From positions 232-64,231 of the forward strand of contig CADBUF010000012.1 of the NCBI GenBank assembly GCA_902797795.1: a stretch of 64,000 bases of DNA, written 5' to 3'. The notes under the pieces are model-generated. The model did not search any database. It was not told where the DNA came from and worked only from the letters and a program-made list of their open reading frames with translations. Source of the DNA: an uncultured Erysipelotrichaceae bacterium (GTDB lineage Bacteria; Bacillota_I; Bacilli_A; RFN20; CAG-826). Shown here one piece after another: positions 5,210 to 63,646 of this stretch. Made by a program: the position numbers and the translations under genes. The first letter of the stretch is position 1; each line of letters starts with the position of its first letter.

Positions 5210-5211
5210 AA

Positions 5212-6303: not shown

Positions 6304-6306
6304 TGA

Positions 6307-7605: not shown

Positions 7606-7608
7606 TTT

Positions 7609-8916: not shown

Positions 8917-8917
8917 A

Positions 8918-20696: not shown

Positions 20697-22130
20697 TTAT
20701 TTTTTTCCCTTAACAGCGAGTTTAACGCATTCATAGGCTCCATCATAATGACCTTGAGCTTTTAGTTCATTAATGCGCCTACACATATGAGGAATTAGTT
20801 CTTTATCACTTATTAATCTATCAAGCATCGCGTTAGCCTCTTTTTTAGTAGGACATTCAGGAGTGGAGTCACCATTTTCTCTACCGTTTATCGCTCCATA
20901 TACTTCATGACCACCGATGTGTCTCATGAATAATTTTGGAATTGGATAATAAGCTAATTCACTTGGTTTAGTCACTAATAAATCAGTAACAGGCATTAAT
21001 AAGTTTGTCGAATAAACAGCCTCAAAGATATTCTTATTGTATATACAATAAACACCTTCCGCATCTCCATTTTTAATCTCTTTGACTAAGTCTAAGAGTT
21101 TGCCATATTCGTTAAAATAATTCTTGGTCTTAAGTTCAACCTTTTTAATGAGTTTATTATAAACAGTTAAGTGATCACCAAAGTTGATGAATAAGGCCAC
21201 TTTCTTCTCTTTTACATAAGGAAGAAGATATTTGACCATTGAGAGGAACATATCAAAACCCGCTCCCGCTCCTCCTACTGTCATAAGGATACGAATTGGT
21301 TTACCATTAACAACTCGATTAATTCTTCTTTCGTTATCTTCTTCTAAATTAACAAGTAATTCATGGTCGATGAAGCAACCCACCATTTTGAGTTGATCTT
21401 CAGGAATGCCATTGAGTGGTTTTTTATCAAACCCGTTAAGAGTCTTATAACCGAAATAGGCAAAAGGAGTTTGTACAGTGTGAATTGCTCCTTCAGAAAG
21501 ATGTAAGCCCATTGGCCAATTATCAGGAATGGCATTAACGACATGTGTCATACCAGCATGAATTGCGGCTTGGCTAGGCCATACGTGAGTGGCAATATAA
21601 GGGATTTCTTTAGGGATATTTCTAAAAATTGGAACGAGTAGTTCACTATTAGCTTGATCTTTCGCATTGTAGGAAATCTTTTTAAATCCTTCAGAGTTAA
21701 GTGGTTCCCAAACAAGTTTGTTAAATAGTTTAGATTTTTGAGAAATACGACTCGCTAAAGAATATAAATCGTTTTGTTCTCTTATCATTTTACTACCAGT
21801 TGCGTCAAAAGAAGCGAGGTCTAACCAATATGGTTTATAACCAAGCGCTTTAGCGGCACTGGCCATGGCAATAGAGATACGGTAATGTCCAAAACCCATA
21901 CGGATGTTACCAACAATTAAGGCTTTATCATCAAACTTTTGGTTCTCTTTTCCAAAGATGATATTATCCGCATTAATGAAATCTAAAGTTGGAATTGATT
22001 CGAAACTAATCTTGTATTCTTTAGAAGAATCATCACCATATTTTTTTATGTATTTCTTTTTGCTTTTATATGCACCCTTAACCACTTTCTTTGGTTGAGG
22101 ATTATTAAATATTGATTGAGATTTATTCAT
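20697..22130 (-). CDS. GT-B fold glycosyltransferase (GT28 / MGDG-synthase / UgtP-like)
   Basis: 477 aa. N-terminal ALIVGNIRMGFGHYRIS (GxGH motif as in MurG/UgtP) and C-terminal MTVGGAGAG donor-binding-domain start. Confidence 0.5.
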   Translation of the reverse strand: MNKSQSIFNNPQPKKVVKGAYKSKKKYIKKYGDDSSKEYKISFESIPTLDFINADNIIFGKENQKFDDKALIVGNIRMGFGHYRISIAMASAAKALGYKPYWLDLASFDATGSKMIREQNDLYSLASRISQKSKLFNKLVWEPLNSEGFKKISYNAKDQANSELLVPIFRNIPKEIPYIATHVWPSQAAIHAGMTHVVNAIPDNWPMGLHLSEGAIHTVQTPFAYFGYKTLNGFDKKPLNGIPEDQLKMVGCFIDHELLVNLEEDNERRINRVVNGKPIRILMTVGGAGAGFDMFLSMVKYLLPYVKEKKVALFINFGDHLTVYNKLIKKVELKTKNYFNEYGKLLDLVKEIKNGDAEGVYCIYNKNIFEAVYSTNLLMPVTDLLVTKPSELAYYPIPKLFMRHIGGHEVYGAINGRENGDSTPECPTKKEANAMLDRLISDKELIPHMCRRINELKAQGHYDGAYECVKLAVKGKK

Positions 22131-41162: not shown

Positions 41163-41165
41163 TAT

Positions 41166-41465
41166 CTATTCCACTGTTAAGAATTTATCAAAACCAGTGA
41201 CGGAGAAAATTTCTTTAATGACGTCGTTACAGTTTTTAATCACTAATTTCTTATTAGTGGCTTGTGCGTCTTTTTTAAAGGCGATTAATAGTCTTAATCC
41301 AGCAGAAGAGATGTATTCGAGTTTTGCAAAATCCAAAACAACATCTAAATCATTTCTTTCTTCATGAGGAACTTTTTCAGTTAATTCTTGGGAAGTAACG
41401 GTGTCTAATCTTCCTTCTAAGGCGATTGTGATAACACCTTTTTCTTTAGTTGTTTTAATAGTCAT
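41166..41465 (-). CDS. STAS-domain anti-sigma-factor antagonist (SpoIIAA/RsbV-like)
   Basis: 99 aa. ITIALEGRLDTVTSQEL...LDFAKLEYISSAGLRLL with conserved phosphorylatable Ser in the YISSAGL motif. Confidence 0.8.
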   Translation of the reverse strand: MTIKTTKEKGVITIALEGRLDTVTSQELTEKVPHEERNDLDVVLDFAKLEYISSAGLRLLIAFKKDAQATNKKLVIKNCNDVIKEIFSVTGFDKFLTVE

Positions 41466-41467
41466 AA

Positions 41468-43234
41468 TTACGCTCCTTGTAAATTAATTTCTAAATATGT
41501 ATTGTTGGTATTTAACACTCTTGTGTAAGACATGTTAGATATCACTTTTCTCACTAATAATATACCACTAGTGGAGAATTCATGTTCATCTTCTTTATAT
41601 TGGGTTGGATCGAAGATGATTCCATCATCTCTAATAGAGAGTAACATTTTATCATTACTTATTCTTAAGGTGACGTCGATATAATAACGATGATTTTTAA
41701 AGCGATAACCATATTGGATGATATTAGCCACCATTTCTTCAGCGCCAATAGAAATCATCGTCGCATCTCTTTTATTCGCCCCATGTTTTAAGGCATATTC
41801 TTTTACTTCCATTGATAATTCTTCAACTTCATTGATGTCGTTAGTAATCGTGACATCATATTTATCTTGAATTTCAATATTAGGAATCATTAATAATCCT
41901 TCGGAAGTAGTTTTCTTCTTCTTGTTATAAATATAAATAAAGATATAAGTGATAAAGACAGTTCCTAATTCTGTTGCCGCTTGAGACACACAATATCCCT
42001 TTAAACCATAAGAGAATAATAGGCCTAAAGTTAAAGGAATAACTAAAATTAATTCTCGACATAATACAGTGACATAGGCAGGAACATTTTTAGTAATAGT
42101 CGGGTAATACATTTGATTGTATTTAGAAATCTCATAAGGAATAAAAGCAGCGAGATAAATCCAAATACATGTAAAGGTAAGACCGCTATTAGAGGTATAT
42201 TCACTAAATCCAAAGACTGTGCAATAAACTCCAGGGAAGATGGCAATAAGAGCGGTTAAAAAGACAGTTACCGCTAAATTAATAATGAAGATTTTTTTCG
42301 CTATTTTTCTTAAGGCGTAATAATCTCTTTCCCCATAAAGCACCCCACAAATATTTGGAATGGTTTGGATAATTCCACCTGCAAATAAATCAAAGACAAA
42401 GACCATGTTGGCAAGAATTCCAAAGATCATAATCTCAAAATTATCTTCAATTACTTTTGAAACATAGATCGAACAAATCGACATCTGTATCGCCGTTAAA
42501 AACATATTAAGGGCAAGCGAACTACTAGCCTTCAATGAATCAATCAAGCACTCCTTAGATGAGTCAAATTTAAAGGTCAATGAAAGCATACGTTTTTTGC
42601 TCTTAATATAGAAAAATACGAGCAAAATGCCGACAAAATATCCAAAACCGGTAGATAAAGCCGCTCCATACATCCCCATATCGCACCACTTAATAAAGGC
42701 GTATTCGGAACCAATTTTAAAGATATTAGCGACGATATACATCGCTGAAGCAAGACGTGGATTATTGTCTGCGCCAATGAAAGATCCTAAAAGTAAAGCA
42801 AGGGTGATAATTGGATCAGTGAGCATGAAGATAAGAATATATTGTCTAGCGTATTCAACGATATCGTTTGGGCAGAATAATTTCGCTAATGGTTCAGCAG
42901 TTAAATAGGCTAGTCCAGCAAATAAAAGAGAAAAAGCCATACCAATAATTAAACATAACGAGAATGTTGTTTTGGATTTAGAGACATTCCGTTTGCCTAA
43001 ATAATTAGCCACTACAATAGCACCACCCGTACCGATAGCAAATCCAGGCAATTGAATGATATATAAAATCGGTAAAACAAGAGAGGAAGCACTTAAAGCG
43101 TCATTACCAATGAAGTTACCAACAAAGATACCATCCACAAGCGAGCCAAATTGCATCGCAAAAATCATGAACATTGAAGGAAGAAGATATTGGATAAGTT
43201 TTTTATCCATCAATTTAGAATTACGAGCAAGCAT
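41468..43234 (-). CDS. MATE-family transporter fused to C-terminal RsbW/SpoIIAB-like HATPase_c_2 (anti-sigma-factor-type Ser kinase) domain
   Basis: 588 aa. N-terminal about 440 aa 12-TM MATE hallmark (LLPSMFMIFAMQFGSLVDGIFVGNFIGNDALSASSLVLPI...GTGGAIVVANYLGKRN). C-terminal about 140 aa with kinase N-box EMVANIIQYG, G1 IRDDGIIFDP, G2 STSGILLV. Confidence 0.65.
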   Translation of the reverse strand: MLARNSKLMDKKLIQYLLPSMFMIFAMQFGSLVDGIFVGNFIGNDALSASSLVLPILYIIQLPGFAIGTGGAIVVANYLGKRNVSKSKTTFSLCLIIGMAFSLLFAGLAYLTAEPLAKLFCPNDIVEYARQYILIFMLTDPIITLALLLGSFIGADNNPRLASAMYIVANIFKIGSEYAFIKWCDMGMYGAALSTGFGYFVGILLVFFYIKSKKRMLSLTFKFDSSKECLIDSLKASSSLALNMFLTAIQMSICSIYVSKVIEDNFEIMIFGILANMVFVFDLFAGGIIQTIPNICGVLYGERDYYALRKIAKKIFIINLAVTVFLTALIAIFPGVYCTVFGFSEYTSNSGLTFTCIWIYLAAFIPYEISKYNQMYYPTITKNVPAYVTVLCRELILVIPLTLGLLFSYGLKGYCVSQAATELGTVFITYIFIYIYNKKKKTTSEGLLMIPNIEIQDKYDVTITNDINEVEELSMEVKEYALKHGANKRDATMISIGAEEMVANIIQYGYRFKNHRYYIDVTLRISNDKMLLSIRDDGIIFDPTQYKEDEHEFSTSGILLVRKVISNMSYTRVLNTNNTYLEINLQGA

Positions 43235-43236
43235 AA

Positions 43237-46200
43237 TTAATCGTCCCTTTCAAAGTAATCTAAGGAAATCAAAGACTTAATAGCCTTAGTTAAATATTCT
43301 TGGTCAGTAATTGGCCATTTATAGCCTAAGCGGTAAAGCGCTTTAATCGAAAATGAATTATCGGTAAGGATATAAGAGTGAGAATGATTATCACTACTTG
43401 TATAAGTAATTAAAGCAGACACTTTCTTGCTCTTAACGTCATCATTTGTAGCTTTAATAACCTCATCCATAAATTCTTTATCCCCAACTTTTTCAATCTT
43501 TAAGCCACAGTCATTCATTGCTTCAATCACATCACCCATTTCTACAGGATGAGAATTTGCACTATGGAAGACGGTGAATTCTTTTGGAGCGGTCGCTAAA
43601 ACGAGAATGCTCTTAGCGACTTCATCAATTGGAGAGAAGTCGGTCGTTTCATCCAAAGAAGAGATTGGGAATTTTCCTAAAGCGTAATAACCTCGTAGAG
43701 ATCGCATAAATCCGTTAGTAATAGAGTTAATTTGGAATTCTCCATCGCTTTGACGTGACATCAAATTACCGACACGAACAATCTTTCCATCTAATCCATC
43801 TTTATTAATTGCCTCTAACATCGCTGCTTCCGCCATAAACTTAGAATGGATATATTTGTTAGAAATATCTTGTCCGATGTCTAATTGGTTTTCTTTCATA
43901 CGGAAGTTTTCAGCGAACTTATGGTCAATATTTTCGCCCGCAACTGATAAAGTGGAGATTTGAATCATTCTCGCATTATGCTTTAAAGCGATTCCAATGA
44001 GGTTTTTCACCCCTCCAACATTAATTTTTTCAATGATATCATCATTTGAGAAATGTTTAACAATCGCTGCTGAATTAATAAGTGTGTCAAATTTGATATC
44101 TTTGAGTTTATCGGTTAAGTTCTCGTCTGCAATATCTCCATCAACGATATGAATAAAGCTATCAAGTTCTTCAGTAAATGGAGAATCGAAATAATATTCA
44201 AGTAATAGAGAAAGTCTACTATGTAAGGAGATTTGTTTACTTCTTACTAACACATATGTTTCTATGTGCTGATCAATTAATTCTTTAAGAATATGAATTC
44301 CTAAAAAGCCAGTCGCACCAGTTAAAAGGACAACACCTAAATCTCTTTCTTTATGAATATCATCAACATATTCAATCGTGTTTTTATTAAGCGCTGCATA
44401 TTTATTATCCTTAGATTCTTCTACTGCTTTTTCTTCTTCCACCACCTCTTCATCTTTATTAATTAATGAAGCAAGTTCAAGGGCAGTAGAATGTTCAAAA
44501 ACATCTTTATAGGCAATTGGTAAGCCCTCTTTAAGAGCGAGCATTGCAACTTTTGAAGCGCTTAAAGAAGTACCACCTAATTCAAAGAAATCTTCATCGA
44601 TTCCGATATCTTGTTTTCCAAGGGCTTTAGCAAAGATTTCACAAATCGTTTTTTCAGTTTTGTTTCTAGGTGCTTTCTTTTCTTTATTAGAGGAAGTAGA
44701 AACAATTTCTGGTAATGATTTCTTATCAATCTTGCCATTAGGAGTAAGAGGGATACGATCAAGTTGCATCATTGCTTTAGGAATCATATATGGGGTAAGT
44801 GATTTTGCCATATATGAAGTTAAAGTTTCTTTATCTAAAGGTTTTGACGCGGTGTAATAAAGCGCTAAATAGTCGCCATCAACATCATTATTTTTCACTA
44901 AAATGACGCATCTAGTGACGTCTGGATGAGAATTACAAACGTTTTCAATCTCATCTAATTCAATTCTTAATCCATGTAATTTTATTTGGTTATCAAGACG
45001 TCCAAAGAATTCGGTGTTACCTTCATTATTCATTCTAGCAAGGTCACCACTTCGATAGGCTCTTTTACCGTTTAAATCAATAAATGAGGCTTTGGTTTTT
45101 TCTTCAAGTTTATAATAGCCAATACCAACACTATCACCGGCAATAGTTAAATCACCAATCGCATTAATTGGTAAAATATGACCAGCCTTATCCAAGATGT
45201 AATAGCTAGTGTTAGCAACAGGTTTACCAATAGTGACATATTTATCAGTAATAAAGGTCATTGATGAAGTAATCGTTGTTTCTGTTGGACCATAACCATT
45301 ATCAATCAGGCAATCAATGCCATGTTTTCTTATACGATCCACTAATTCATAAGGAACAGCCTCTGCTCCCATATCAAGCACTTTGAAGTTCTTTAATGCT
45401 TCAACAAATTCTAGAGTATCTAAAACGTTAGAAACGTATGAAGGAGTTAAGAACATAATGTTAACTCCATATTTCTTTAATGTTTGTGATAATAAAAGTG
45501 GGTTTTCAATCTCTTCTTCACTAGCGATCACTGCTTGATAACCATGAGAGAGAATGACACATTCTTCTTGTAAAGAAGCATCAAAAGCAAAAGAAGCAAA
45601 CGAGCAGCTAGACACTTTGTCTTTAATAATGCGATATTCGTTAGTGGCTAAATTAGCGCCATCTAAGACATAATTTGATAAATTCTTATGACTAATCATC
45701 ACCCCTTTAGGTTTACCAGTGCTACCAGAGGTATAGATGATGTAACATAGTGAATCTAGTGGGATACCAATATTTAAATTGCTTGTCTTATTAGATTTCA
45801 AAATGTCTTCAATTAAAAGAACTTTAATCTTTGTCTTTTTAATGAGGTCATGTTTTTCTTTTTCAATATCTTTAGTGGTTATTAAAATCTTCGCGTCACT
45901 ATCGGTGATGATATATTCAATACGATCATCAGGATATTTAGGATCAATAGCGACAAAGGCTCCACCCGATTTAAGAATACCTTCTCTAACGAAATAAGCA
46001 CTTACTCTTCTAGGCATGAGCATGATTACTCTTTCACCAAGAGCGACTTTATCTTCAGACAAAGCATGAGCGACTTTATTCGCGTTTTCGTTAAATTGTT
46101 TATATGTATATTCTCCATCAACACCCGCTAAAGCGAGTCTATTTGGATATTTCTCCACTATTTCTTCTACGATCTTAGGGTAGGCTTTATTTGAAGGTTT

Positions 46201-49200
46201 AACATATGTTTGGTTAAATTCTTCATATAACTTTTTATCAACTTCTGGTAAGCAGTTAATTTCACTGATGTGTTTTTTAGATGTCACTTCCAGTAACGCC
46301 AATTCAAATAATCTAGCAAATGATTCAATCGTATTCTTGTTATACATTGATTCATCATATTCAAAATGAAGTTTGAATTTATTATCTTCGATGAAAACAT
46401 CTAAAGAGAATAGTGATTTCGCATCATCTGAATCCAATATCACACTTTCAGCTTTCTTATTACCGATTTCATTAAATTCAAATAAGTCTCCTTGATAAGC
46501 AAACATCACATCACTAGTGATATTAAAGGCTGAGGCTATTTCTTGGAAAGAATAGATGTCGTTTATTTGTGAAGACTCTAATTGTTTCTTCATCTCTTCT
46601 AGTAGAGATAACACTTCATCATTTTCTTGATATTTAACATAAACTGGTAAAGTTTTTACCATCATCGAAACAGTGTTCATGTTCTTAGATGAATTTCTCC
46701 CATTATAGATAGTGACAAACAAAGCATCCTGCTTATAAATAAATTTAGAGAAGGTAAAACCAAATACGAAGTTAGTGATCGCATTTAGGGTTAAATTGTT
46801 CTTACTAGCGAATTCTTTAATCGCTTTGACATCAATATTAGAATAGATATCTTCAACATGTAATTTAGCGACTTCTTCAGTCTTTAAATCTTTCTTCATG
46901 AGATATCCATCTTCGACATCTTTCAATAAAGTAGCGTAATATTCTTTCGCATTTTCATAGGCTTTTGAATTACGTTTATCGTTCTCTTCTAAAGCAAGTT
47001 CATAGCCAGTGAAGGTTTCTTTTTCAAGCTTTTCACCAGAATAAGCTTTATTAATATCATTTAAAAGGATATTTTCACTAGTGCCATCACAGATAAGATG
47101 ATGAACATCTAAGAAGAGGTAATTATTATCTTTACATTCATAGATTTCAACACGATATAAAGGACCACCAACGATTTCAAAAGGTCTAACCAAAGATTTT
47201 TGATCGAGCTTATTAGCTTTAATAATTTCAACTTTTGGTTCAGCTTCTTTTCTTATAGCCTTGATGTTCCCATCATCGTCCATCTTCAAAGTTGTTAAAA
47301 GATATTCATGAGCCTTTAAGGCCTTAATCACACTTTCATTAAGTTTATTGATATCGATAGACTTATCAATTTTAAATAATAAAGGAATGTTATAATTTGT
47401 ACTTCCAACTTTAGCGATTGATTCAATAAAGATACCTTCTTGAGTCTTGGTTAATGGGTATTCACTTAATAAATCATAAGTCTTGTTTTCATCTTGTTCT
47501 TCCATCAAAGAAGCGAGTTCTTTAATGTTAGGGTGCTCGTTTAAATCTTGAGAAGAGATCTCTTTATTAAATGCTTTAGATAATCTCACAGTTAAAGTGA
47601 TAGAAGAAATAGAGGTAATACCAGCCTCATATATATCAGTAGTCACTCCAAAAGAATCATGACCTAAAATCTCTTTTATAATATCAAAGATCTTTTGTTC
47701 ATTTTCAGTGCTAGGTTTAACGACATCCTCCACTTTCAATTCAGGAACTGGTAAAGCTTTTTTATTCACTTTTTGGTTTTGATTAAGTGGAATTGCATCT
47801 ATTTGCATAATATATGGGGGGACCATATAAGGTGGCTTTTTACTTTTAATGAAAGCTTTTAAGTCATCAACGTCAATCTTTTTATCACTGACGATATAAC
47901 CCACGATATATTTAACTCCAGCGGGGTCCGCAAAATCTTTAACAGTCGCGTCTTTAATGTCTGGATATTGTCTAATAACTTGTTCGACTTCACTTAATTC
48001 CACACGGAAGCCACGTATTTTCACTTGGAAGTCTTTTCTTCCAATAAAATCGATATCTCCATTTGGAAGGAATCTTACGATATCACCAGTCTTATAAAGT
48101 TTTTTAAATCGAGGATCATCATCGAAAGGATTAATCAAGAAGGCCTTTTTATTTTCTTCGTCTCTATTTAGATATCCACGAGACACTTGAGGACCAGAAA
48201 TATATAACTCACCTTTAGCAAGATATGGTAATCTCTTTTTATTTTCGTCTAATACATAGAATTTATAATCGCTTAAAGCGTGACCAATTGGGATACGATG
48301 ATAAAGTTTATCAACATGATATCCGGAACAATATATTGTTCCTTCTGTTGGTCCATATAAATTGAATAGCTTATAGTTTTTAGGTGGGTCAAGAGGGACT
48401 AACTTTTCTCCTCCTACAGAAATAGTTCTAATCGTTTCAAATGTTAATTCACTCACTAATTGTCGACCTACTTGAGTAGTAAAGAAGGCATCAGTAATTT
48501 TATTTTCATTTAAATATTTATTTAGTCCAATGAGATCTAATCGCATCTCTTCAGGAATGATATAAATAGTTCCCCCGACCACGATAGTTGGATATAAATC
48601 AAGCATATCAGCGTCAAATCCATATGAAGCATAGGCACTCACTCTCGCGTCATGTTGGAGATTTCTAAAATTAATATCAACATTACAAACTGACATGATG
48701 TTTTGGTGTTCTAACATTACTCCTTTAGGAACACCAGTGGAGCCAGAAGTATATAACATGATAAAAAGGTTTTCAGGTCTAGGTCTATTTGTAGGTCGAG
48801 ATTCATCTTTCAATTTATCAAATTCATCAAGATAAATAACTGGGCCTTTATATTCATCGAGTAAATCAATATATTGTCTTTCGGCGATAACAACTTTACT
48901 AGATGCATCCTTAACCATGAAGTTAAGTCTTTCTTTAGGATAAGAAACATCTAATGGTTGATAGGCTGCACAAGATTTAATAACTCCTAAAGAGGCAATA
49001 ACAATATATTCACTTTTCGAAATAAGGATTGAAACTTTGTCTTCCTCTTTAACACCAAGTCTAATCAATTCATTAGCGATTCTATTTGAATAGAGGTCAA
49101 CTTCCTTATAGGTGTAACTCTTATCTTTATAGACCACTAAGGTTTTATTGGGCTCCTTATTAAGCCAATAATCAAATTTATCAAGAATTGTTTTTCCCTG

Positions 49201-50472
49201 TTCAAGTTGACTCATATCAACATGATTAAAGTCATCTAAAATCTTGATTTGTTTTTCATCTAAAAGTTCAATTTCTTCAAGTTTTAATGGTGATTTGAGC
49301 AGTTTTTTAAGAATTATGTCATATAAATCAATGATTTGATTAATCGAGTCATCACTATATAAATCACTTCTAAATTCAAACCAAATATAGAACTTATTTC
49401 TATCTCTATGGATCTCAATAGACATGATTCCTTTTCCATCTTTTTCTTCGATTTGTTTAGCCACTACTTCTTTGTCGTTGAATGTTGTTTTAAACATATA
49501 ATCACCTTGATAGGCAAATAAGATTTCAGGAGAGACACCTAAATTTGTAACAACTTGAGAGAAGGAATATAAATCATGTTTAACATTATTAATCAATTCG
49601 TCATTAACCTTATTAAACATTTCTTTGGAAGTTTTGATATTTTCTAAATTGAGATAAAGAGGGAATGTCCTTACAAACATACCAAAAGTATTTTCTAATG
49701 TTTCATCTCTACCATTATGAATGGAAGCAATTATTACTTCTTTGTCCATGTTCACTTTTGAAAGGAGGAACATAAAACAAGAGATAAAATAGCTTGATGT
49801 TTTAATTCCTTGCTTATGAGTAAATTCACGAACCTCACTAGCGTCAACTTTTAATTCTTTTTTAATCGTATGATGACTAATTTCTTCTTTTTTATAGTCC
49901 TCGACTATTGTACTTTCAGTGTCGATTCCACCATAGTTGTCTTTATAATATTTTTCAGCTTCTTTAAATTCCTTGGATTTTAGAAGTTTTTGTTCGCGCT
50001 TACAGTAGGAGAAGACATCTTCTTTTTCAGAAGGTATTTTCTTTCCTTTATATAAAGCATCTAAGGAATCAATGAATAATTTAATTGTGTTACCATCAGC
50101 GATGATGTGATGGAAATCAAAAAATAGATAATATTCTTTATTAACTTTTAAAAGCTCAAAACGATATAAGTGATGGTTAAATAGATCAAATTCCTTCACC
50201 AACCCTTTTTCATTAATCTTTTTTAATTCTTTAAGAGGGACTTTGATATCTTCTACATGACATTCTTTGTAGAAGTTTCCTTCATCATCTTTTTTAATGA
50301 TCGTAAATATCCCTTGATGGACTTTACTAAACTCATTAATAGCGGCCTCTATTTTCTTGGCGTCAACATCTTCTCCTAAAGGTAATAAAGAAGGGAGGTT
50401 ATATTTAGTTGTCGGTTTTAAACATTCAAACAAAATCCCTAATTCAGATTGCGATAAAAGATACTTTTCCAT
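43237..50472 (-). CDS. dimodular non-ribosomal peptide synthetase, C-A-T-C-A-T-R (terminal thioester reductase)
   Basis: 2411 aa. C1 HHIIADG (aa 121-127). A1 cores LYTSGSTGVPKGV / NLYGPTEG / YKTGDIVRF...GRKDFQVKIRGFRVEL with FDAD (Asp235). T1 GITSIS. C2 HHLICDG. A2 YTSGSTGKPKGV / NGYGPTET / YRSGDLARM...GRLDNQIKLHGLRIEL with FDAS. T2 LGGTSLSA. R domain Rossmann VVLLTGATGFLGIHIL. Confidence 0.95.
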   Translation of the reverse strand: MEKYLLSQSELGILFECLKPTTKYNLPSLLPLGEDVDAKKIEAAINEFSKVHQGIFTIIKKDDEGNFYKECHVEDIKVPLKELKKINEKGLVKEFDLFNHHLYRFELLKVNKEYYLFFDFHHIIADGNTIKLFIDSLDALYKGKKIPSEKEDVFSYCKREQKLLKSKEFKEAEKYYKDNYGGIDTESTIVEDYKKEEISHHTIKKELKVDASEVREFTHKQGIKTSSYFISCFMFLLSKVNMDKEVIIASIHNGRDETLENTFGMFVRTFPLYLNLENIKTSKEMFNKVNDELINNVKHDLYSFSQVVTNLGVSPEILFAYQGDYMFKTTFNDKEVVAKQIEEKDGKGIMSIEIHRDRNKFYIWFEFRSDLYSDDSINQIIDLYDIILKKLLKSPLKLEEIELLDEKQIKILDDFNHVDMSQLEQGKTILDKFDYWLNKEPNKTLVVYKDKSYTYKEVDLYSNRIANELIRLGVKEEDKVSILISKSEYIVIASLGVIKSCAAYQPLDVSYPKERLNFMVKDASSKVVIAERQYIDLLDEYKGPVIYLDEFDKLKDESRPTNRPRPENLFIMLYTSGSTGVPKGVMLEHQNIMSVCNVDINFRNLQHDARVSAYASYGFDADMLDLYPTIVVGGTIYIIPEEMRLDLIGLNKYLNENKITDAFFTTQVGRQLVSELTFETIRTISVGGEKLVPLDPPKNYKLFNLYGPTEGTIYCSGYHVDKLYHRIPIGHALSDYKFYVLDENKKRLPYLAKGELYISGPQVSRGYLNRDEENKKAFLINPFDDDPRFKKLYKTGDIVRFLPNGDIDFIGRKDFQVKIRGFRVELSEVEQVIRQYPDIKDATVKDFADPAGVKYIVGYIVSDKKIDVDDLKAFIKSKKPPYMVPPYIMQIDAIPLNQNQKVNKKALPVPELKVEDVVKPSTENEQKIFDIIKEILGHDSFGVTTDIYEAGITSISSITLTVRLSKAFNKEISSQDLNEHPNIKELASLMEEQDENKTYDLLSEYPLTKTQEGIFIESIAKVGSTNYNIPLLFKIDKSIDINKLNESVIKALKAHEYLLTTLKMDDDGNIKAIRKEAEPKVEIIKANKLDQKSLVRPFEIVGGPLYRVEIYECKDNNYLFLDVHHLICDGTSENILLNDINKAYSGEKLEKETFTGYELALEENDKRNSKAYENAKEYYATLLKDVEDGYLMKKDLKTEEVAKLHVEDIYSNIDVKAIKEFASKNNLTLNAITNFVFGFTFSKFIYKQDALFVTIYNGRNSSKNMNTVSMMVKTLPVYVKYQENDEVLSLLEEMKKQLESSQINDIYSFQEIASAFNITSDVMFAYQGDLFEFNEIGNKKAESVILDSDDAKSLFSLDVFIEDNKFKLHFEYDESMYNKNTIESFARLFELALLEVTSKKHISEINCLPEVDKKLYEEFNQTYVKPSNKAYPKIVEEIVEKYPNRLALAGVDGEYTYKQFNENANKVAHALSEDKVALGERVIMLMPRRVSAYFVREGILKSGGAFVAIDPKYPDDRIEYIITDSDAKILITTKDIEKEKHDLIKKTKIKVLLIEDILKSNKTSNLNIGIPLDSLCYIIYTSGSTGKPKGVMISHKNLSNYVLDGANLATNEYRIIKDKVSSCSFASFAFDASLQEECVILSHGYQAVIASEEEIENPLLLSQTLKKYGVNIMFLTPSYVSNVLDTLEFVEALKNFKVLDMGAEAVPYELVDRIRKHGIDCLIDNGYGPTETTITSSMTFITDKYVTIGKPVANTSYYILDKAGHILPINAIGDLTIAGDSVGIGYYKLEEKTKASFIDLNGKRAYRSGDLARMNNEGNTEFFGRLDNQIKLHGLRIELDEIENVCNSHPDVTRCVILVKNNDVDGDYLALYYTASKPLDKETLTSYMAKSLTPYMIPKAMMQLDRIPLTPNGKIDKKSLPEIVSTSSNKEKKAPRNKTEKTICEIFAKALGKQDIGIDEDFFELGGTSLSASKVAMLALKEGLPIAYKDVFEHSTALELASLINKDEEVVEEEKAVEESKDNKYAALNKNTIEYVDDIHKERDLGVVLLTGATGFLGIHILKELIDQHIETYVLVRSKQISLHSRLSLLLEYYFDSPFTEELDSFIHIVDGDIADENLTDKLKDIKFDTLINSAAIVKHFSNDDIIEKINVGGVKNLIGIALKHNARMIQISTLSVAGENIDHKFAENFRMKENQLDIGQDISNKYIHSKFMAEAAMLEAINKDGLDGKIVRVGNLMSRQSDGEFQINSITNGFMRSLRGYYALGKFPISSLDETTDFSPIDEVAKSILVLATAPKEFTVFHSANSHPVEMGDVIEAMNDCGLKIEKVGDKEFMDEVIKATNDDVKSKKVSALITYTSSDNHSHSYILTDNSFSIKALYRLGYKWPITDQEYLTKAIKSLISLDYFERDD

Positions 50473-50477
50473 AATTG

Positions 50478-51092
50478 TTATTCCTCCAAAGAATTGATTT
50501 TCTTAATATTTATATTAAATGGTTTTTCCTCTTTTAAAGTAAGAGATAACGAATAGCCATCATATATCATCGATTTAGTGTAACCACCATATCTATTTCC
50601 TTCTAAAGGAAGGCCCTTTATTTTTCTTATATCCATAAGCGAATTAGAGAAACATTTAATAAGGCTTTCTTTATTAGACCAAAGAAGGAATAAATCATTG
50701 ATATCATTAATTTCTTTTTCTTCATCCACTAATGAATATTTAATCGCCCCAATTTTGCTTTGATCAATGCGTTCAATATCCACTCCAACATCTCTATCTA
50801 TAGAGACAGCAAGAACAACATATTCCCCTGAATGTGACAAATTAAAATATGGTCCATTTTCCATATAAGGCTTACCATTATCGGTAAATTTAATCTCTTT
50901 ATGTGGAAGAAATTTATATAGTAAATACCCTCCACCCAAGGAGAGAATTTGATCCTTTTTTTGAACGAACCTATTAGCTTTTTCAATTCGACTTTTATCA
51001 ATATGAGAAACAATAAAAGAATAATTGTCGTTTACAAAAGAAGTATGAAGAATATAGACATTAATTTCATTCATTAAAAAATATTCTAACAC
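50478..51092 (-). CDS. Sfp-type 4'-phosphopantetheinyl transferase
   Basis: 204 aa. VGVDIERI and WSNKESLIKC (W..KE...K) motifs. 5-nt gap to the NRPS start. Confidence 0.8.
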   Translation of the reverse strand: MLEYFLMNEINVYILHTSFVNDNYSFIVSHIDKSRIEKANRFVQKKDQILSLGGGYLLYKFLPHKEIKFTDNGKPYMENGPYFNLSHSGEYVVLAVSIDRDVGVDIERIDQSKIGAIKYSLVDEEKEINDINDLFLLWSNKESLIKCFSNSLMDIRKIKGLPLEGNRYGGYTKSMIYDGYSLSLTLKEEKPFNINIKKINSLEE

Positions 51093-57147: not shown

Positions 57148-57330
57148 AAATAGTTTTCCTTTAATAAATTATATTTATTTTATCATTTAGTTCTTATGGC
57201 GTCAAAGACGCTCATATAGAAATGAGCAAGTTGTTATAGCAAAACAAACAACGCTAACTATGGTTAGTTATTTTTGAACTCATCAATTTTTTAATAGTTC
57301 ATTCTATAGTGTTGAAGCTGCCACGAACAA

Positions 57331-57356
57331 GAAAAAAACCGAGCTTTTACACTCGG
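57331..57356 (-). terminator. rho-independent terminator ending the minus-strand accessory island
   Basis: On the minus strand: CCGAGtgtaaaagCTCGG hairpin followed by TTTTTTT. Confidence 0.6.
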
Positions 57357-57629
57357 CATTTACTTAATTAGATTGCGCCAATAGGTATATCGCTCCACAC
57401 TAAATAGTCAATAAGCAATTTATAACGGAGTTAATAATATAGAGCATTTAACAAAATTCCATCAAAATACTTAAGCGACGAAATCAAATATCTTTTAGCT
57501 ATATATTTGTTCCCACCATGCCTAAATCTTGGAAAAAAGAAAATTCACATCTTTTTAACACTTTTTTCATTTGCTGGTGCGGTTAATACATAATATTCGT
57601 TTTTTCAGGTGTTTAATGTCATTAAACAA

Positions 57630-58862
57630 TTATTTAAGAAGAGAAGTTAGAAATACCTCGGCTTGGACAGCATTAACACTTTTGTCTATTCTACTTGTAT
57701 CCGTTAGTATCTCAACATAAATCAAGGACTTTTTGCAATCATCATTAATCGCAACCAAATTTCCTATTTCTCTATCGAAATTATCTCCAGTAAGAGAATA
57801 AGCTACCTGAACATGATTACCTGAATAATTAAAATCAATTTCGCCTTCAACGTTGTTTTTCTCACCAATTATTAATAAACCAGTCGAGTCAATCTTATTT
57901 TGCTTTAAATGTAGAAATACGGCAGTTTCTAATGCGGAAGTTAGTTTATGATTCGGAACTTTGCATTGTTCATACGCAATGCCACTATCACAGCAGTAAT
58001 ATTTTTTATTTAGGCCAATCATTTCTAGTGGTGTTTTTCTGCCATACGATTCGTTGTCAAAAGGACTAAATAAGAAAGATTTAGTTACAATGTCTAAATA
58101 ATCTTTAACTTCCCTTCGTAATTGAGCTTTTTGACTTTTATCAAAGCCATAATGTTTGCACATTTCATCGACAACTCTAACAGTACTAAAAGGAGTAGAG
58201 CCCGAGAATAGATTAGACATAATACTATCCATGTCTTCTTTTGATAGATATAAAAAGTTTTCTTTTATTGTTCTATCCACAATATCTAATTGATATATCT
58301 GTTTGTAAATATAATCTATCTCTGTATCTTTTGATTTTGTATTTACAACTGTTGGCAGACCACCATATTTCAAATAATCAAGCAAAGAGTATGTTTTCTT
58401 AACAGCTCTAATTTCTTTGAAAGTTAAAGGATAGAGATATACTATATCCGCTAATTCTTTAAAACTTTCAACTATATCAGCGGACAAAGTATTGCTGTTC
58501 GAACCAGTAACATACAAATCAATATTTGGATAATCATAGATAAAATCTTTAAGAACTTTGTGATAGTTTTCTGCTTCTTGAACTTCATCTATGAAAATGA
58601 TTTCTGGATTGCTGTCTACGACGGTTTTTAATAGTGATCTGAACAACTCTTCGCTTTTATATTTCTTGTGCTTTCCAGTTAAATATATTTTTGTAAAAGA
58701 ATTCTTACCGAGCTTATCTTTTTCAGAAACATATTCATAAAATAAAGTATCTAGAAGATATGTCTTGCCACATCTTCTAACTCCGGCAACAATTTTAATC
58801 TTTCCATTATGAAGTTTTTTGTATAATTCTTTTACTTTGGTGTTTCTTTTAAATTTGCTCAT
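57630..58862 (-). CDS. AAA_14 + DUF4143-type P-loop ATPase
   Basis: Walker A GVRRCGKTY, Walker B IIFIDEVQ. Probable start ATG at 58862 (GGAG 9 nt upstream, 1 nt after the upstream TAA) rather than the ORF-track start 58877. Confidence 0.7.
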   Translation of the reverse strand: MSKFKRNTKVKELYKKLHNGKIKIVAGVRRCGKTYLLDTLFYEYVSEKDKLGKNSFTKIYLTGKHKKYKSEELFRSLLKTVVDSNPEIIFIDEVQEAENYHKVLKDFIYDYPNIDLYVTGSNSNTLSADIVESFKELADIVYLYPLTFKEIRAVKKTYSLLDYLKYGGLPTVVNTKSKDTEIDYIYKQIYQLDIVDRTIKENFLYLSKEDMDSIMSNLFSGSTPFSTVRVVDEMCKHYGFDKSQKAQLRREVKDYLDIVTKSFLFSPFDNESYGRKTPLEMIGLNKKYYCCDSGIAYEQCKVPNHKLTSALETAVFLHLKQNKIDSTGLLIIGEKNNVEGEIDFNYSGNHVQVAYSLTGDNFDREIGNLVAINDDCKKSLIYVEILTDTSRIDKSVNAVQAEVFLTSLLK

Positions 58863-58863
58863 A

Positions 58864-59958
58864 TTATTGGACTCCATAAGTTAAAAAGTTTTTTACGCTC
58901 ATATATGTAACACCGTGTTCATCGACATAAGTATCAATATCGTCCATGATAATAATGAATCTTGGATACAGCGATCTATATCTATAGTATCTCTCCAAAG
59001 AATCTTGATTTTCTGTAAAATATAATTTCAATAAAAATTGTTTGGTTTTTGAAACCACGAAATATGTATTTGCTAAAGCGTTAGAATGCTTATTCTCGCT
59101 ATTGCGATAGACCGCTTTGTATGTGAGATTATTATCATTAATTAATTTAGCAATAATCGCAGTTTCATAAACGCTTCTTCTTTGCTTATCTATATTAGTT
59201 ACACTCCTACATATTTGTGATATGTCCGCTGGATAACAGTATAAATAATTGGGTAGTTTGTCCATTTTTTTTAAATCAAATCTGTTTAATGCATAGAAGA
59301 ATCTATGATGTGCAGCGTAATTGAAAATGCCAACAAATGTATTTAAACTAACGTCTGGCGACATATTCTCAAACATTCCTCTAAAGTTTACAGGATAGCC
59401 GACATTTTTCGCTATATAATCGCATATCTTTTCCACTTCGTTTTTATACTTGAATGTTGGAATATAATCAAATAGTTTTTCATCAGTGTCTTCAACATAA
59501 TTAAGTAAATCAAAAGTATGATGATTATCCAAGAAATCGCTATACAAAAAAGGTGGAAATGCAATATACTGTACTCTTCCTCTAATCACGGTTGATCGAT
59601 TACCTAACAAATCTTCTAAATGAATATTGGATGAAGCGATTAAATCAACATTCGAATTACCAGCAAATAGATTGATAATCCCATCTATATCGTTATAATC
59701 TGGTAGCCTATCAATTATAAAAATCTTTTTTACACTATCTTCTGTTGAAAGGTTTTCTGAAAGATGTTCTAACAAATCAACCTTTGTAAATACACTGCCT
59801 ATATAATAAACATTCTTAAAAGTTTGTCTAATTTCATCCACTAGAAATTCTTTCATGGTTTTTGAATAAGCGCCACAAAGGATTTTTACTTTTCCATTTC
59901 CTAAGCTACTCTTTATTTCTTTTTTAATATTATCTCTCATGATTAAACTATAAAGCAT
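58864..59958 (-). CDS. degenerate paralog of the downstream AAA_14-type ATPase (pseudo-ATPase; Walker A/B not conserved)
   Basis: 364 aa, alignable with the downstream ATPase (KVKILCGAYSKT vs KIKIVAGVRRCGKT; IFIIDRLP vs IIFIDEVQ). Translationally coupled to the downstream gene. No convincing SD at either candidate start. Confidence 0.5.
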   Translation of the reverse strand: MLYSLIMRDNIKKEIKSSLGNGKVKILCGAYSKTMKEFLVDEIRQTFKNVYYIGSVFTKVDLLEHLSENLSTEDSVKKIFIIDRLPDYNDIDGIINLFAGNSNVDLIASSNIHLEDLLGNRSTVIRGRVQYIAFPPFLYSDFLDNHHTFDLLNYVEDTDEKLFDYIPTFKYKNEVEKICDYIAKNVGYPVNFRGMFENMSPDVSLNTFVGIFNYAAHHRFFYALNRFDLKKMDKLPNYLYCYPADISQICRSVTNIDKQRRSVYETAIIAKLINDNNLTYKAVYRNSENKHSNALANTYFVVSKTKQFLLKLYFTENQDSLERYYRYRSLYPRFIIIMDDIDTYVDEHGVTYMSVKNFLTYGVQ

Positions 59959-60113
59959 CTGTAAAATAATTTCAATTTTTAATTATTGTTTTTGATTTTT
60001 TTGACATTTTTTGCAAAATAATTCAGTACAATAACTGTCTAATCAAAAGCAGAGAGCTCAAAATAATTGATACCTTTAAAAACCAATGCAAGGAAACAGA
60101 GTGCTTCAATCCA

Positions 60114-63113
60114 TTAATCCTTCTTTTTTGGGCTACTGCAGAATTCAAGCAGTTTTAGTTGAGGGATTCCTGTTATTTTAGAAATATTAGCACACTGCTC
60201 ACTATTTAAACCATTTTTTATGGCAAACACACGCACAACTCTATTAATAATTAATAATTTTTCTTTATTCTTTTCTGGTTCTTTATAGAAATATTTTATT
60301 TGGCTACAGAAAGCATCAAAGTTTCCTGTCTCAGCATAAGTAATAATCTTAAATAATTTTTTAAAGAAAACATCATCCTCTAGTTTATTAATTATTGGCA
60401 ATGATACTCTCGAACTAATGATGTTTGACATTGTTGTTTCAATATTCAAAACAAAAGTAATTAGCATATCATAAAAAGCGTGAACGATATCCATATCTTC
60501 AACTTGTTTAATAATGCGTTCATTAATACCATTTTCTTTTGCGTTGTCAATCCATTGCTTTTTGGCATTATTAAAATCTTCTTCAACTTCTTTGATTTCT
60601 TCTTCACTGCTAAAGCTGAAAAGCAAGTTCACAATTTTCAAAGATGCAGAGATTGTTTTATCCAAAAACAAATATCTTGTCTCGGAATCTATTTCGCTAG
60701 GAAAACCAGCAATTACTTTGCAAGATATCTCAATTAATTTTGCAATTTTATTAATGGCGTTGATTTCTTTATCTTCTTCTACATCAAAAGCCTTCCTTTC
60801 ATTATCTCTTGCTGATTCGATTCTTCTTCTATTTTCTGTATCCAATCTTTCATATAAAGCTTTCTTGTTCTCAGCTTGTCTTTTGGTTTCGGGAATCAAC
60901 TTTTTATTAAGTTTTAGAATAGGATTATTTTTTGTTTCAAAGTTTATTTCCTCAAACTTGCTTAAAAGCTTGTCTAAAGTGTCATGGATATCAAAAAACA
61001 CGTTGATAGTTTTAAGCTGGTAAACGACGAAAACAAAGATGTCGCCATTTATTCCGTAAACAATATTATCAACAATCTTATTGAAATAATCTGTTTTGCC
61101 AGATTGGTAAAGCCTGATAATTTCTAGCGATGCAAAATAAGCTAAAAATGAATTTCTTTCAAACCTATACTCGTTGTCTTCTTTATAGACAAGTTTTGAA
61201 CCAACTAGAATTCTAAGAACATCTTCGTCGGTTAATTTGATATGAGTAAAGTCTTTGCGTCTTTCTTTTACACATTTTGAAATATCTGCAAAGTCAAAAG
61301 AAGATCCTTGCTTAACAAACACCGTGTGCAAAGCAAGAAGCTGGATAACGCTTATACAATCATCTAAAGACTCTCCGTTAGATGCGTTTAATATGGCGCT
61401 TCTCAAAGAATGTTCAAAAATAATGGTGAAAGCGTTTTGGGTATCACGTTCTTGGTAGAGTTTATTGTTATATATTTGAGAAATTAATGGTAGCAAATAG
61501 CTCGGATCAGAAATATCCAAAACACTACAGGTTGAAATAGAAGCCTCAATAGCATTTGTAATTAATGACAATTCATTTTCGCTAATAATATTCTTTTGTT
61601 TTAAATATTTGTTATAGAATTCGATTCTTTGCTTAATTGAGAAACCACCTATGATGAACGTTTCGTTTTCTTCGAAATATCTCTTTATTAAATTACTTAG
61701 TGATTCGTTCTTTTGAATAGAGGAAACGATAATAATGCCAAACTTTTCTTTCAAATAATCCAGTATTTCATTCTTTTTGTAATCCTTTTCAACACAATCA
61801 AAATTATCAATTAAAATAATCTTTTCATCTAATGGTGATTCAATAAAATCATCATATACATTGATTGCACTTCTATATTCCTCATTAAAAGCGTTTTTAA
61901 TCGCTGTCTCAATGTTGTTAGGATATTCATATTTGACATCAAGGTATATGCACCATTTGTCATTTTTAAAATATTCAAACAACCTATGCAGCAAGATACT
62001 TTTTCCACAATTTGGATTTCCGAACAAATAAACTTTATGTTGCTTTCCGATATGGTCTACAAAAGATTGAAAATCGTTAATGTTTTCCTGCTTGCCGGAA
62101 GCTTTCAATAAAGGCATTACAAAAATGTCTCTCTCACGAACATCATCTTTCAACAAAGGGTTGATAATAGTCGAAATAAAAGTGTCTTTAATTAATAAAG
62201 GCGTGTTAGTTTTTAGATTCTCTTTTTCAAAATGGTGCCTTTTGAATTTATTCTTTTTATAATCAAACACAAATTTAAACATTTCGCAACGGCTGCAATC
62301 ATCGTTGACATAATAAGCGGCCAAACTACCAGTTATTGCTCCTGAGTTTACATTTAATTCGCCGCCTTTTGAAATGATTGTCGAGCCTTCTTCATAATCA
62401 ATTCTTACTTCTTTAATTTCACAAGTATGCTCATGACCATAAAATCCAAATGTAGCAACAGTATTCTCAAAGTCTTCAAGAGCTGTTTTTGCACTGTACA
62501 CAAACCAATCTGGTCTATGATGTGAAACAAGTATCTCTATGGTTGTCTTTCCTTTTTGAGGATCTCCATGAATTGGATAATTGTTTGGTAGCAAATAATG
62601 AATTCCTTTATCTTTATCATTAGAGCCCAACATAGAAAAAGGCGCAGAATTGACTAATACAAAATGGAATCTTGTTTTATTGGTATCAAACGTCTTATAG
62701 ACAATACTATTTTTTGAAAAATCAATGCCGTATTTCTTGCAATAATTGATTGACTGTTTTTGGTTTTTAAGCGTTTCAACATACAGTTTCTTAACGTCGC
62801 CACTTTTCATGTTTGTGATGGAACGATACTGTTCTTGCTTGCTTTCATCAATTGATATGTCATGATTCCCAGGGACAAGGATTAATTGGCAATCAACACC
62901 ATATTTTCTGTCTATTAATCCTTTTATGTTGTTAATCAAAACATCAAAAGCAGATATCTCTTCATCAAGATGTTGTTGGCTAAAGTCACCAGTAAAAATA
63001 ATAAAGCAATTCTCAACCGCAATACCTGATGGCAATTCAGAAACAATGCCATTGATATCAACCGTAGAAGAATCCCCAATATGTATATCGCTTAAATGTA
63101 ATAATAGAGTCAT
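60114..63113 (-). CDS. calcineurin-like metallophosphoesterase domain fused to STAND/AAA-type P-loop NTPase and C-terminal alpha-helical region
   Basis: Likely start at 63113 (MTLLLHLSDIHIG; AGGGGAG RBS), not the ORF-track 63197. Phosphoesterase motifs DIH / FTGD / PGNHD / GHEHT. Walker A LFGNPNCGKS, Walker B IILIDNFD. About 400-aa helical C-terminus. Confidence 0.65.
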   Translation of the reverse strand: MTLLLHLSDIHIGDSSTVDINGIVSELPSGIAVENCFIIFTGDFSQQHLDEEISAFDVLINNIKGLIDRKYGVDCQLILVPGNHDISIDESKQEQYRSITNMKSGDVKKLYVETLKNQKQSINYCKKYGIDFSKNSIVYKTFDTNKTRFHFVLVNSAPFSMLGSNDKDKGIHYLLPNNYPIHGDPQKGKTTIEILVSHHRPDWFVYSAKTALEDFENTVATFGFYGHEHTCEIKEVRIDYEEGSTIISKGGELNVNSGAITGSLAAYYVNDDCSRCEMFKFVFDYKKNKFKRHHFEKENLKTNTPLLIKDTFISTIINPLLKDDVRERDIFVMPLLKASGKQENINDFQSFVDHIGKQHKVYLFGNPNCGKSILLHRLFEYFKNDKWCIYLDVKYEYPNNIETAIKNAFNEEYRSAINVYDDFIESPLDEKIILIDNFDCVEKDYKKNEILDYLKEKFGIIIVSSIQKNESLSNLIKRYFEENETFIIGGFSIKQRIEFYNKYLKQKNIISENELSLITNAIEASISTCSVLDISDPSYLLPLISQIYNNKLYQERDTQNAFTIIFEHSLRSAILNASNGESLDDCISVIQLLALHTVFVKQGSSFDFADISKCVKERRKDFTHIKLTDEDVLRILVGSKLVYKEDNEYRFERNSFLAYFASLEIIRLYQSGKTDYFNKIVDNIVYGINGDIFVFVVYQLKTINVFFDIHDTLDKLLSKFEEINFETKNNPILKLNKKLIPETKRQAENKKALYERLDTENRRRIESARDNERKAFDVEEDKEINAINKIAKLIEISCKVIAGFPSEIDSETRYLFLDKTISASLKIVNLLFSFSSEEEIKEVEEDFNNAKKQWIDNAKENGINERIIKQVEDMDIVHAFYDMLITFVLNIETTMSNIISSRVSLPIINKLEDDVFFKKLFKIITYAETGNFDAFCSQIKYFYKEPEKNKEKLLIINRVVRVFAIKNGLNSEQCANISKITGIPQLKLLEFCSSPKKKD

Positions 63114-63596
63114 CAAGTACTCCCCTATCTCGTATCTATAAAATATTATGTTATAAGAAATCTTATTAATAAAGAAAATAAGCATACAAATGAACAATAA
63201 TAAGAATAATAATCTTTAAATAATAAAATTTCGGAAACACGACAATCATCTTCGTGAGTAATCATATGTTAACATATGTAAGATTTAAACCATAGCTAGT
63301 AGACTTCATAGATCATATCTTGCGATATTGGATCGAGAAAGGCCCATTTCATCCGCGAATTGTGTTTGGCTTAAGTTGAATAGTTTTCTAATTGTTTTTT
63401 ATGTCTTTTTTACATTGAATGTTTTCACAAACAAATTGTAGCATTTGCTACATTTTATTTTAAGATTGCACTGATTAAATAGAAAAGACCTATTTATAGG
63501 TCTTTAATATCTATATCAGTAGTAATTGTGGTTGTCTAAGGTCAGTTATTCAATTTGATCTAAAAATTCGTATAGTTTTTGAAATTAAAGGCATTA

Positions 63597-63646
63597 AAAA
63601 AGTACCTCTAGTTCTAGAAATTAGATAGAGGTACCTTTTATTATTT
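63597..63646 (-). terminator. rho-independent terminator for the minus-strand gene ending at 63657
   Basis: On the minus strand: AGGTACCTCTAtctaatttctagaacTAGAGGTACT hairpin followed by TTTTTT. Confidence 0.6.

Follow-up and report, generated by a model that had tools for sequence, protein, structure and literature searches.

What do three genes of the same orientation encode when they lie between strong terminators and next to an operon for pyrimidine catabolism, and do they form a single system? In the window, i.e., the complete stretch of 64,000 nucleotides analyzed here, the interval from 57331 to 63646 contains three open reading frames, all on the minus strand, which are termed genes A, B and C in the following. 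A first reading that was based on the sequence alone had described them as a terminator-bounded, co-directional group that is unrelated to the flanking metabolism, follows the logic of defense islands and does not match any named system. The picture that emerged from our analysis, and to which we assign a probability of roughly 0.7, is that the block is a small defense island consisting of two independent modules, gene A as a member of the DS-8 family on the one hand and an operon of genes B and C on the other. The features that are relevant for the argument are the following:

57338 to 57357, minus strand: terminator 3′ of gene C, a GC-rich hairpin followed by U7 that can work bidirectionally
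57630 to 58862, minus strand: gene C, 410 aa, predicted AAA_14 ATPase of the PDC-S01 candidate family
58864 to 59940, minus strand: gene B, 358 aa, predicted degenerate AAA_14/DUF4143 paralog
59947 to 59975, minus strand: candidate promoter-like site of B–C, TTGAAA, 17 nt spacer, TATAGT
60114 to 63113, minus strand: gene A, 999 aa, distant homolog of the DS-8 family as judged by its sequence profile
63597 to 63639, minus strand: terminator of the upstream gene for a 652-aa protein, a 14-bp stem followed by U6
57520 to 63256, not assigned to a strand: shared cassette with 95–96% nucleotide identity to the unrelated context L077 (blastn)

Both terminators that had been proposed for the borders are indeed strong. 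The hairpin at 57338–57357 together with its U7 tract folds with −12.8 kcal/mol (z −4.9), the one at 63597–63639 together with its U6 tract folds with −19.1 kcal/mol (z −5.2), and in both cases none of 200 shuffled sequences folded as well. The terminator at 63597–63639 shields gene A from upstream transcription. The non-coding flanks, previously estimated at about 480 and 460 bp, measure 482 bp downstream of the block (57148–57629) and 459 bp upstream of it when counted from the TTG at 63197; with the ATG at 63113 as the starting point and the upstream gene, which ends at 63657, as the limit, the upstream flank comprises 543 bp. The abundance of palindromes that had been attributed to both flanks is found in the upstream flank, which contains three hairpins (63597–63639, 63476–63513 with z −6.9, and 63429–63460 with z −2.7), but not in the downstream flank, where the terminator is essentially the only one. 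None of the Rfam families reached its gathering score anywhere in the window, and the long flanks therefore contain no known riboswitch or small RNA. None of the small open reading frames in 57148–57629 exceeds 50 aa or has any remarkable feature.

The genes bordering the block encode a dihydropyrimidinase, an M20 hydrolase and a permease, which are enzymes and transporters of pyrimidine catabolism and, as had been stated, unrelated to genes A to C. A metagenome contig of an uncultured member of the Bacilli (L001), which is identical to the window, shows the genes past the end of the latter. Upstream of A it carries the gene for the 652-aa protein, an AbiEii gene about 3 kb from the block, two genes for C39/ABC exporters and a radical-SAM/SPASM gene. 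The sequence clusters of the island genes comprise 7–8 members, compared with 53 for the dihydropyrimidinase and 136 for the M20 hydrolase. Relatives with a dihydropyrimidinase of at least 90% identity keep the dihydropyrimidinase-hydrolase-permease trio and lack A, B and C. In several of them, the trio is located between rpsF-ssb-rpsR and gdpP-rplI-dnaB. The cargo upstream of the trio is different in every relative and includes, among others, Fic, HTH and DUF6273. At the nucleotide level, the window is homologous to one of these relatives only as far as position 57192. Because the three genes are absent from these relatives, other cargo is present and homology ends close to the block, the latter is not part of the core synteny. 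It is an accessory, variably present element in a variable, origin-proximal region, which was the question behind the earlier proposal of a synteny comparison in relatives. Its G+C content ranges from 0.28 to 0.33, that of the flanking genes from 0.31 to 0.38, without a marked break.

The maximal open reading frame of gene A extends from 60114 to 63197. Homologs begin at the metallophosphoesterase motif and the ATG at 63113 is preceded by GGGGAG, and therefore this ATG was taken as the best start, resulting in a protein of 999 aa. Window positions 60114–63116 served as the reference in searches; this reference has one additional N-terminal residue, such that alignment numbers exceed those of the 999-aa protein by one. 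The sequence-only reading had recognized a giant protein combining a phosphoesterase with a P-loop NTPase, and this architecture is well borne out. A calcineurin-like metallophosphoesterase (residues ~1–300) is followed by a STAND NTPase that is NACHT-like and includes helical and winged-helix domains (~345–655), and by an all-alpha tail (~655–999). In Pfam, Metallophos is matched above the threshold with 34.3 bits, while nSTAND3 stays just under its threshold (25.3 versus 27.2 bits).

A named relative of this protein does exist. DS-8 is a validated single-gene defense system of Escherichia coli (WP_032203427.1) that was found with DefensePredictor. It contains a metallophosphatase as well as a NACHT NTPase and loses its protective effect upon the exchanges D52A, N84A and K375A (DeWeirdt et al., Science 2026; PMC13092281). 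Protein A aligns with the NCBIfam profile for DS-8 (NF053861, DS8_antiphage) from end to end (247.1 bits, E 2.8e-73, residues 7–962 on profile positions 1–972 of 994). As this score is far below 790 bits, the curated cut-off for equivalogs, A is a distant homolog of DS-8 and not an equivalog. Like DS-8, A is a single polypeptide of about 1000 aa in which a metallophosphatase at the N-terminus and a P-loop NTPase of the NACHT type precede a helical region at the C-terminus. Unlike DS-8, it belongs to a Bacilli lineage rather than to Enterobacteria, has a highly diverged C-terminal sensor region, and is known here from its sequence. The alignments of nine representative relatives of A with the DS-8 profile were also end-to-end, at 250–391 bits and thus all below 790. 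Protein A is therefore part of a broad superfamily, of which the DS-8 clade of E. coli represents one narrow branch.

Residue conservation points in the same direction. The motifs DxH, GD, GNHD, H and GHxH, the Walker A motif G-x4-GK and one Walker B aspartate are invariant in 30 homologs of A. They include the GD aspartate, the GNHD asparagine and the Walker A lysine, i.e., the motif matches of D52, N84 and K375 in DS-8. As A was compared with DS-8 via the NCBIfam profile, the equivalence of these residues is deduced from the motifs, and functional equivalence of the two proteins would be an extrapolation. Protein A is a new, divergent member of the DS-8 kind, which has been known since 2025–26. 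A total of 375 relatives was retrieved from 5.8 billion proteins, nearly all of them with a length of 990–1030 aa, and identity to the more distant relatives that match the DS-8 profile is about 20–25%. Among the matches listed in a profile scan of genome contigs with a 10-sequence alignment, there were only distant relatives of A and none from the window's own species. Protein A has no match in the phage collection, and no PHROG family matched; in the plasmid collection, only five partial matches of A were found.

In an AlphaFold2 model of A (pLDDT 86, pTM 0.78), a phosphoesterase with a beta-sandwich fold is followed by an NBD, which is accompanied by helical and winged-helix domains, and the tail from about residue 655 onward is all-alpha. 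The predicted structure fits the general STAND layout, in which NBD, helical domain and winged helix precede a sensor or repeat region. The protein had originally been called STAND/Avs-like. The first part of this designation holds, the second does not, as none of the PADLOC models for Avs (types 1–5) matched A at E ≤ 0.1. Furthermore, the effector of A is a metallophosphoesterase instead of the nuclease, protease or SIR2 domains of Avs/AVAST, and the fold of its NTPase is closer to the animal NACHT proteins NOD2, NLRP3 and NLRC4 than to Avs and other bacterial STAND proteins. The fold matches with NLRC4, NLRP3 and NOD2 span 340–570 columns. The best Foldseek match of the entire model was YydB from Bacillus subtilis in the YydD-YydB model 9a6c (E 3.9e-11), followed by NLRC4 and NLRP3 (1e-8). 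Rv0805 was the first phosphoesterase, and Avs4 ranked lower; A resembles Avs proteins at the level of the fold only. YydB is a metallophosphoesterase from an origin-proximal variable region. Unlike A, YydB and YydD constitute a two-protein complex (PDB 9a6c, an integrative model), and the likeness is a fold match only. Our literature search on YydB and YydD retrieved no functional account.

The phosphoesterase fold of A is nearest to purple acid phosphatase (PAP), Lmo2642, SMPDL3B and Rv0805 and not to the Mre11/SbcD nucleases. The proximity to SMPDL3-like and cNMP phosphodiesterases agrees with the assessment by the authors of the DS-8 study (PMC13092281). Since these closest neighbors act on small molecules or nucleotides, hydrolysis of a nucleotide-type phosphodiester would be the likeliest chemistry for the effector, as judged by the fold ranking only. 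Alternatively, the effector could be a nuclease of the Mre11/SbcD type that degrades DNA once it is activated and thus leads to abortive infection, comparable to the nuclease effectors of Avs proteins. Nuclease effectors are common in STAND defense proteins, as is known from the Avs family, and a sequence-profile search of the PDB returned weak matches of A to SbcD/Mre11 (E 4e-4 to 4e-3). With the fold ranking pointing elsewhere, we consider a nuclease unlikely and retain a phosphodiesterase acting on nucleotide-type substrates as the preferred candidate.

Genes B and C had been described as an ATPase/pseudo-ATPase pair, and both halves of this description proved correct. Protein C matches Pfam AAA_14 with 88.5 bits (cut-off 27) and, over its full length, the PADLOC PDC-S01 model PDLC04787 (4.2e-53, residues 4–411 on positions 4–407 of 412). 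Pfam DUF4143 (PF13635) is absent from the hits of C itself at E ≤ 0.1; C can be aligned over its entire length with proteins that are PF13635-positive, and it has E312, E341, D343, Q352, E365 and K378 in common with them. When C is aligned with 37 relatives, among them canonical AAA_14-DUF4143 proteins, the N-terminal residues G27, R29, G32 and K33, D92 and E93, and S121 and N122 are invariant, and these blocks include Walker A, Walker B (DE) and sensor-1. The same alignment reveals E312, E341-x-D343, Q352, E365 and K378 as invariant C-terminal residues. Protein C is described here as a predicted AAA_14 ATPase with a putative C-terminal DUF4143-like domain; DUF4143 has been classed in the PD-(D/E)XK superfamily (PMC3424549).

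The full-length match, the AAA_14 domain and the invariant acidic residues in the C-terminal part are features that C shares with PDC-S01, a single-gene combination of AAA_14 and DUF4143 (COG1373). Unlike in PDC-S01, the degenerate paralog B lies in front of C, and the two are translationally coupled: the TAA stop codon of B is separated by 1 nt from the ATG of C, and GGAG is located upstream of the start of C. Gene B precedes gene C in every sampled context of the subfamily, such that a single-gene PDC-S01 system does not fit, and no B-like partner is present at 80 canonical AAA_14-DUF4143 loci. When metagenomes were scanned with an alignment of the C subfamily, only canonical AAA_14-DUF4143 genes with 26–31% identity were among the matches listed. 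We propose that B–C is a candidate two-gene variant of PDC-S01.

Protein B has no match in Pfam or NCBIfam, and in PADLOC it is covered by PDC-S01 with its C-terminal half only (6e-10). Comparison of B with the C family by hhalign yielded a probability of 94.8% (E 4.9e-8, 342 columns), and a B profile weakly matched canonical AAA_14 genes. At the Walker A position, B contains GAYSKTMK where C has GVRRCGKT. The Walker B position is occupied by IIDR, the aspartate of which is not kept in close relatives but varies between D, N and H, and the C-terminal E-x-D...Q is replaced by N-T-x-x-V...K. All three signatures of an active AAA_14/DUF4143 member (Walker A GxxxxGK[ST], Walker B hhhhDE and E-x-D...Q) have therefore disappeared, and B is predicted to be a divergent, catalytically degenerate paralog of this family. 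Some distant members of the B family have an intact P-loop; its loss in the window's clade is therefore secondary. The AlphaFold2 model of B adopts an AAA+ fold with ORC2 and the clamp-loader delta subunit as the top matches, i.e., with catalytically inactive AAA+ subunits of mixed complexes. This is an analogy of principle only: apart from the common AAA+ fold, B is not related to these subunits in sequence. Proteins of the B type are rare (four clusters at 90% identity in 5.8e9 proteins, 35 representatives in 1.84e9), and a scan of viral contigs for B found nothing. In the literature and databases searched, this pseudo-ATPase partner is the only element of the block that lacks a precedent.

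Do A, B and C belong to a single three-gene system, as had been assumed initially? In such a system, the ATPase pair would regulate the phosphoesterase-NTPase or sense on its behalf, or vice versa. The genes are co-directional and close-set, the gap of 173 nt between A and B contains no convincing terminator (z −0.57), and the segment from 57520 to 63256 is present as one unit in another context, too, with 95–96% identity. The independent distribution of the two modules argues against this proposal. At least nine independent loci with A homologs have neither B nor C within 8–10 kb. A homolog with 59% identity adjoins NERD, an SRA/NUDIX/NOV_C gene and a DpnII restriction-modification system, another one with 40% identity adjoins AIPR, and a third one with 37% identity adjoins the Thoeris genes ThsA/ThsB, in all three cases without B and C. 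At least five genome loci (in Tissierella, Collinsella and others) contain A-like genes without B or C, and on an IMG/VR viral contig one A-like gene is situated directly 3′ of the tail-fiber, holin and endolysin genes of a prophage lysis cassette. A C-like gene, on the other hand, immediately follows B in four of four distinct contexts, and three independent B–C loci lack A. In these, the pair adjoins Upx-like and Abi_2-like genes (L070), another AAA_14-DUF4143 gene (L074) and an alanine dehydrogenase gene (L076), respectively.

The only other site with all three genes is L077. Its sequence matches window positions 63256–62537 and 60797–57520 with 95–96% nucleotide identity (blastn) and lacks positions 62536–60798. 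This deletion of 1739 bp inside gene A leaves fragments of 197 and 183 aa, and B and C are intact with 96% identity. The neighboring genes in L077 (ISL3 transposase, Schlafen/AlbA_2 ATPase, PDC-S06-like ABC ATPase and PycTM effector) differ from those in the window. Moreover, DS-8 acts as a single gene, and B–C is preceded by a putative sigma-70-like promoter of its own, which was identified as a consensus match only (10 of 12 positions in a consensus scan) and the −10 element of which ends 7 nt before the ATG of B. Taken together, it is very unlikely that A, B and C constitute one system. The block of 5.7 kb travels as a unit, and its two modules are functionally separable. At the cassette ends (57520 and 63256), neither direct or inverted repeats nor att-like sites, an integrase or a transposase were found, and the flanks outside of the cassette have no homolog in any of the loci fetched. 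The joint occurrence of the modules in two contexts with 95–96% identity may nevertheless reflect functional cooperation of A with B–C.

A more far-reaching version of the two-module reading sees B–C as a distinct, previously undescribed two-gene defense system. In this case, the dead B protein would form an obligate hetero-oligomer with active C and act as a phage sensor or brake, as is the case for inactive subunits in ORC and clamp loaders, and synergy between the two modules might underlie the repeated co-transfer with a gene of the DS-8 type. We regard this version as possible, albeit doubtful, and prefer to view B–C as a candidate variant of PDC-S01.

It must also be considered that B–C, and possibly A, are not defense genes at all. 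AAA_14/DUF4143 proteins could be selfish or perform housekeeping tasks such as the maintenance of mobile elements or nucleic-acid processing, and A could be a regulated phosphodiesterase in nucleotide signaling or metabolism. PDC-S01 is a guilt-by-embedding candidate from PADLOC without a validated phenotype, and the one representative that was tested provided no protection against T4, T5 and T7 in E. coli B. The PDC-S01/COG1373 ATPase family is extremely abundant and often present in multiple copies, the phosphoesterase domain of A resembles cNMP and lipid phosphodiesterases, and the block adjoins genes for pyrimidine and purine catabolism. However, A has the complete STAND sensor architecture of validated DS-8, both modules recur in defense-rich neighborhoods, i.e., among bona fide defense genes in unrelated contexts, close relatives with the metabolic trio lack the block, and the terminators insulate it from the flanking operons. 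A role outside of defense is thus quite unlikely. The defense-island logic that had originally been derived from the order of effector, NTPase and helical sensor-like tail and from the active and degenerate ATPase paralogs is well supported by the genomic contexts.

We infer that A and B–C serve anti-phage functions, and the two modules would work as follows. Protein A, as a member of the DS-8 family, would be an immune sensor of the STAND/NLR-like type that works as a single protein and recognizes a phage-derived cue with its helical C-terminal domain. The NACHT-like NTPase would then drive ATP-dependent oligomerization, and this in turn would switch on the N-terminal binuclear metallophosphoesterase. 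Protein B, shorn of ATPase and nuclease-type residues, probably joins C in a hetero-oligomer as a regulatory or sensing subunit, and B–C may therefore represent a hetero-oligomeric ATPase/PD-(D/E)XK-like machine.

As far as A is concerned, our findings would add Firmicutes and a large, diverse superfamily of proteins of about 1000 aa to the known range of the DS-8 architecture, and the relatives of A offer comparative material for tracing the substrate and the trigger of DS-8. In other respects, the block is a typical small defense island in a variable, origin-proximal region. For the abundant PDC-S01/COG1373 ATPases, a rare pseudo-ATPase partner is now flagged that may explain the negative test of the lone representative, and B–C would be a tractable pair for learning about the function of this family.

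Some observations concern the best structural match and a viral homologue of A, the metallophosphoesterase-STAND NTPase protein of the island, and a second genomic context of the same A-B-C cassette, in which an internal part of A is missing.

L161:4974-8027, A-family homologue, 1017 aa, terminal gene on a viral contig from IMG/VR
L077:8569-9827, cassette copy with internally deleted A, equivalent to window 63256-60114

The top Foldseek match of the A model was Bacillus subtilis YydB (PDB 9a6c_B, from the YydD-YydB integrative model), and YydB/YydD might represent a two-protein, split form of the metallophosphoesterase plus NTPase architecture; a literature search for the function of YydB/YydD retrieved no functional work. 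The viral homologue is encoded directly downstream of genes for a tail fibre, a holin and an endolysin. In prophages, this slot is the usual site of defence cargo. In L077, A lacks 1739 bp internally, with only slight microhomology at the deletion junction, and is reduced to fragments of 197 and 183 aa, beside which B and C are intact (96% identity).

Further genes surround the island on its contig, and these include the region upstream of A, which is available from L001, a metagenome contig identical to the window that runs on beyond it.

L001:1-9529, region upstream of A, past the window's right end
window 43237-51092, non-ribosomal peptide synthetase (NRPS), 2411 aa, adjoining a phosphopantetheinyl transferase gene
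window 39051-43234, two adjacent fusion proteins, each containing an anti-sigma-type kinase domain
window 3113-11242 and 20697-22130, two molybdoenzymes resembling xanthine dehydrogenase, and a DUF6937-DUF6938 protein

L001 encodes an AbiEii toxin-like protein with a 107-aa partner, a 652-aa protein without any family match, and two peptidase-C39/ABC exporters that form a RiPP-type cluster with a radical-SAM/SPASM enzyme. The metabolic trio (dihydropyrimidinase, M20 hydrolase, permease) separates the island from the NRPS and phosphopantetheinyl transferase genes, which, like the island, are absent from close relatives. Both fusions are unusual: one joins MatE to HATPase_c_2 (588 aa), the other a SpoIIE phosphatase to HATPase_c_2 (703 aa). 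The molybdoenzymes and the DUF6937-DUF6938 protein suggest a large region for purine/pyrimidine catabolism, of which the dihydropyrimidinase trio bordering the island is probably a part.

The B-C pair also occurs without A, in locus L074.

L074:2650-3878, split C homologue, two ORFs (191 aa and 219 aa)
window 59947-59975, promoter-like site of B (B ATG at 59940)

The C homologue in L074 has probably been split by a frameshift, and the close upstream neighbour of B in this locus is a canonical AAA_14-DUF4143 gene. In the window, the -10 element ends 7 nt ahead of the ATG of B, which has no Shine-Dalgarno sequence, so the B-C mRNA may be leaderless. In the B-family alignment, distant B-like proteins (P0302, P0306, P0308, P0309, P0315) keep the canonical GxxGxGK[ST] P-loop, whereas it is lost in the window's clade, so the pseudo-ATPase state of B is derived within this small family.
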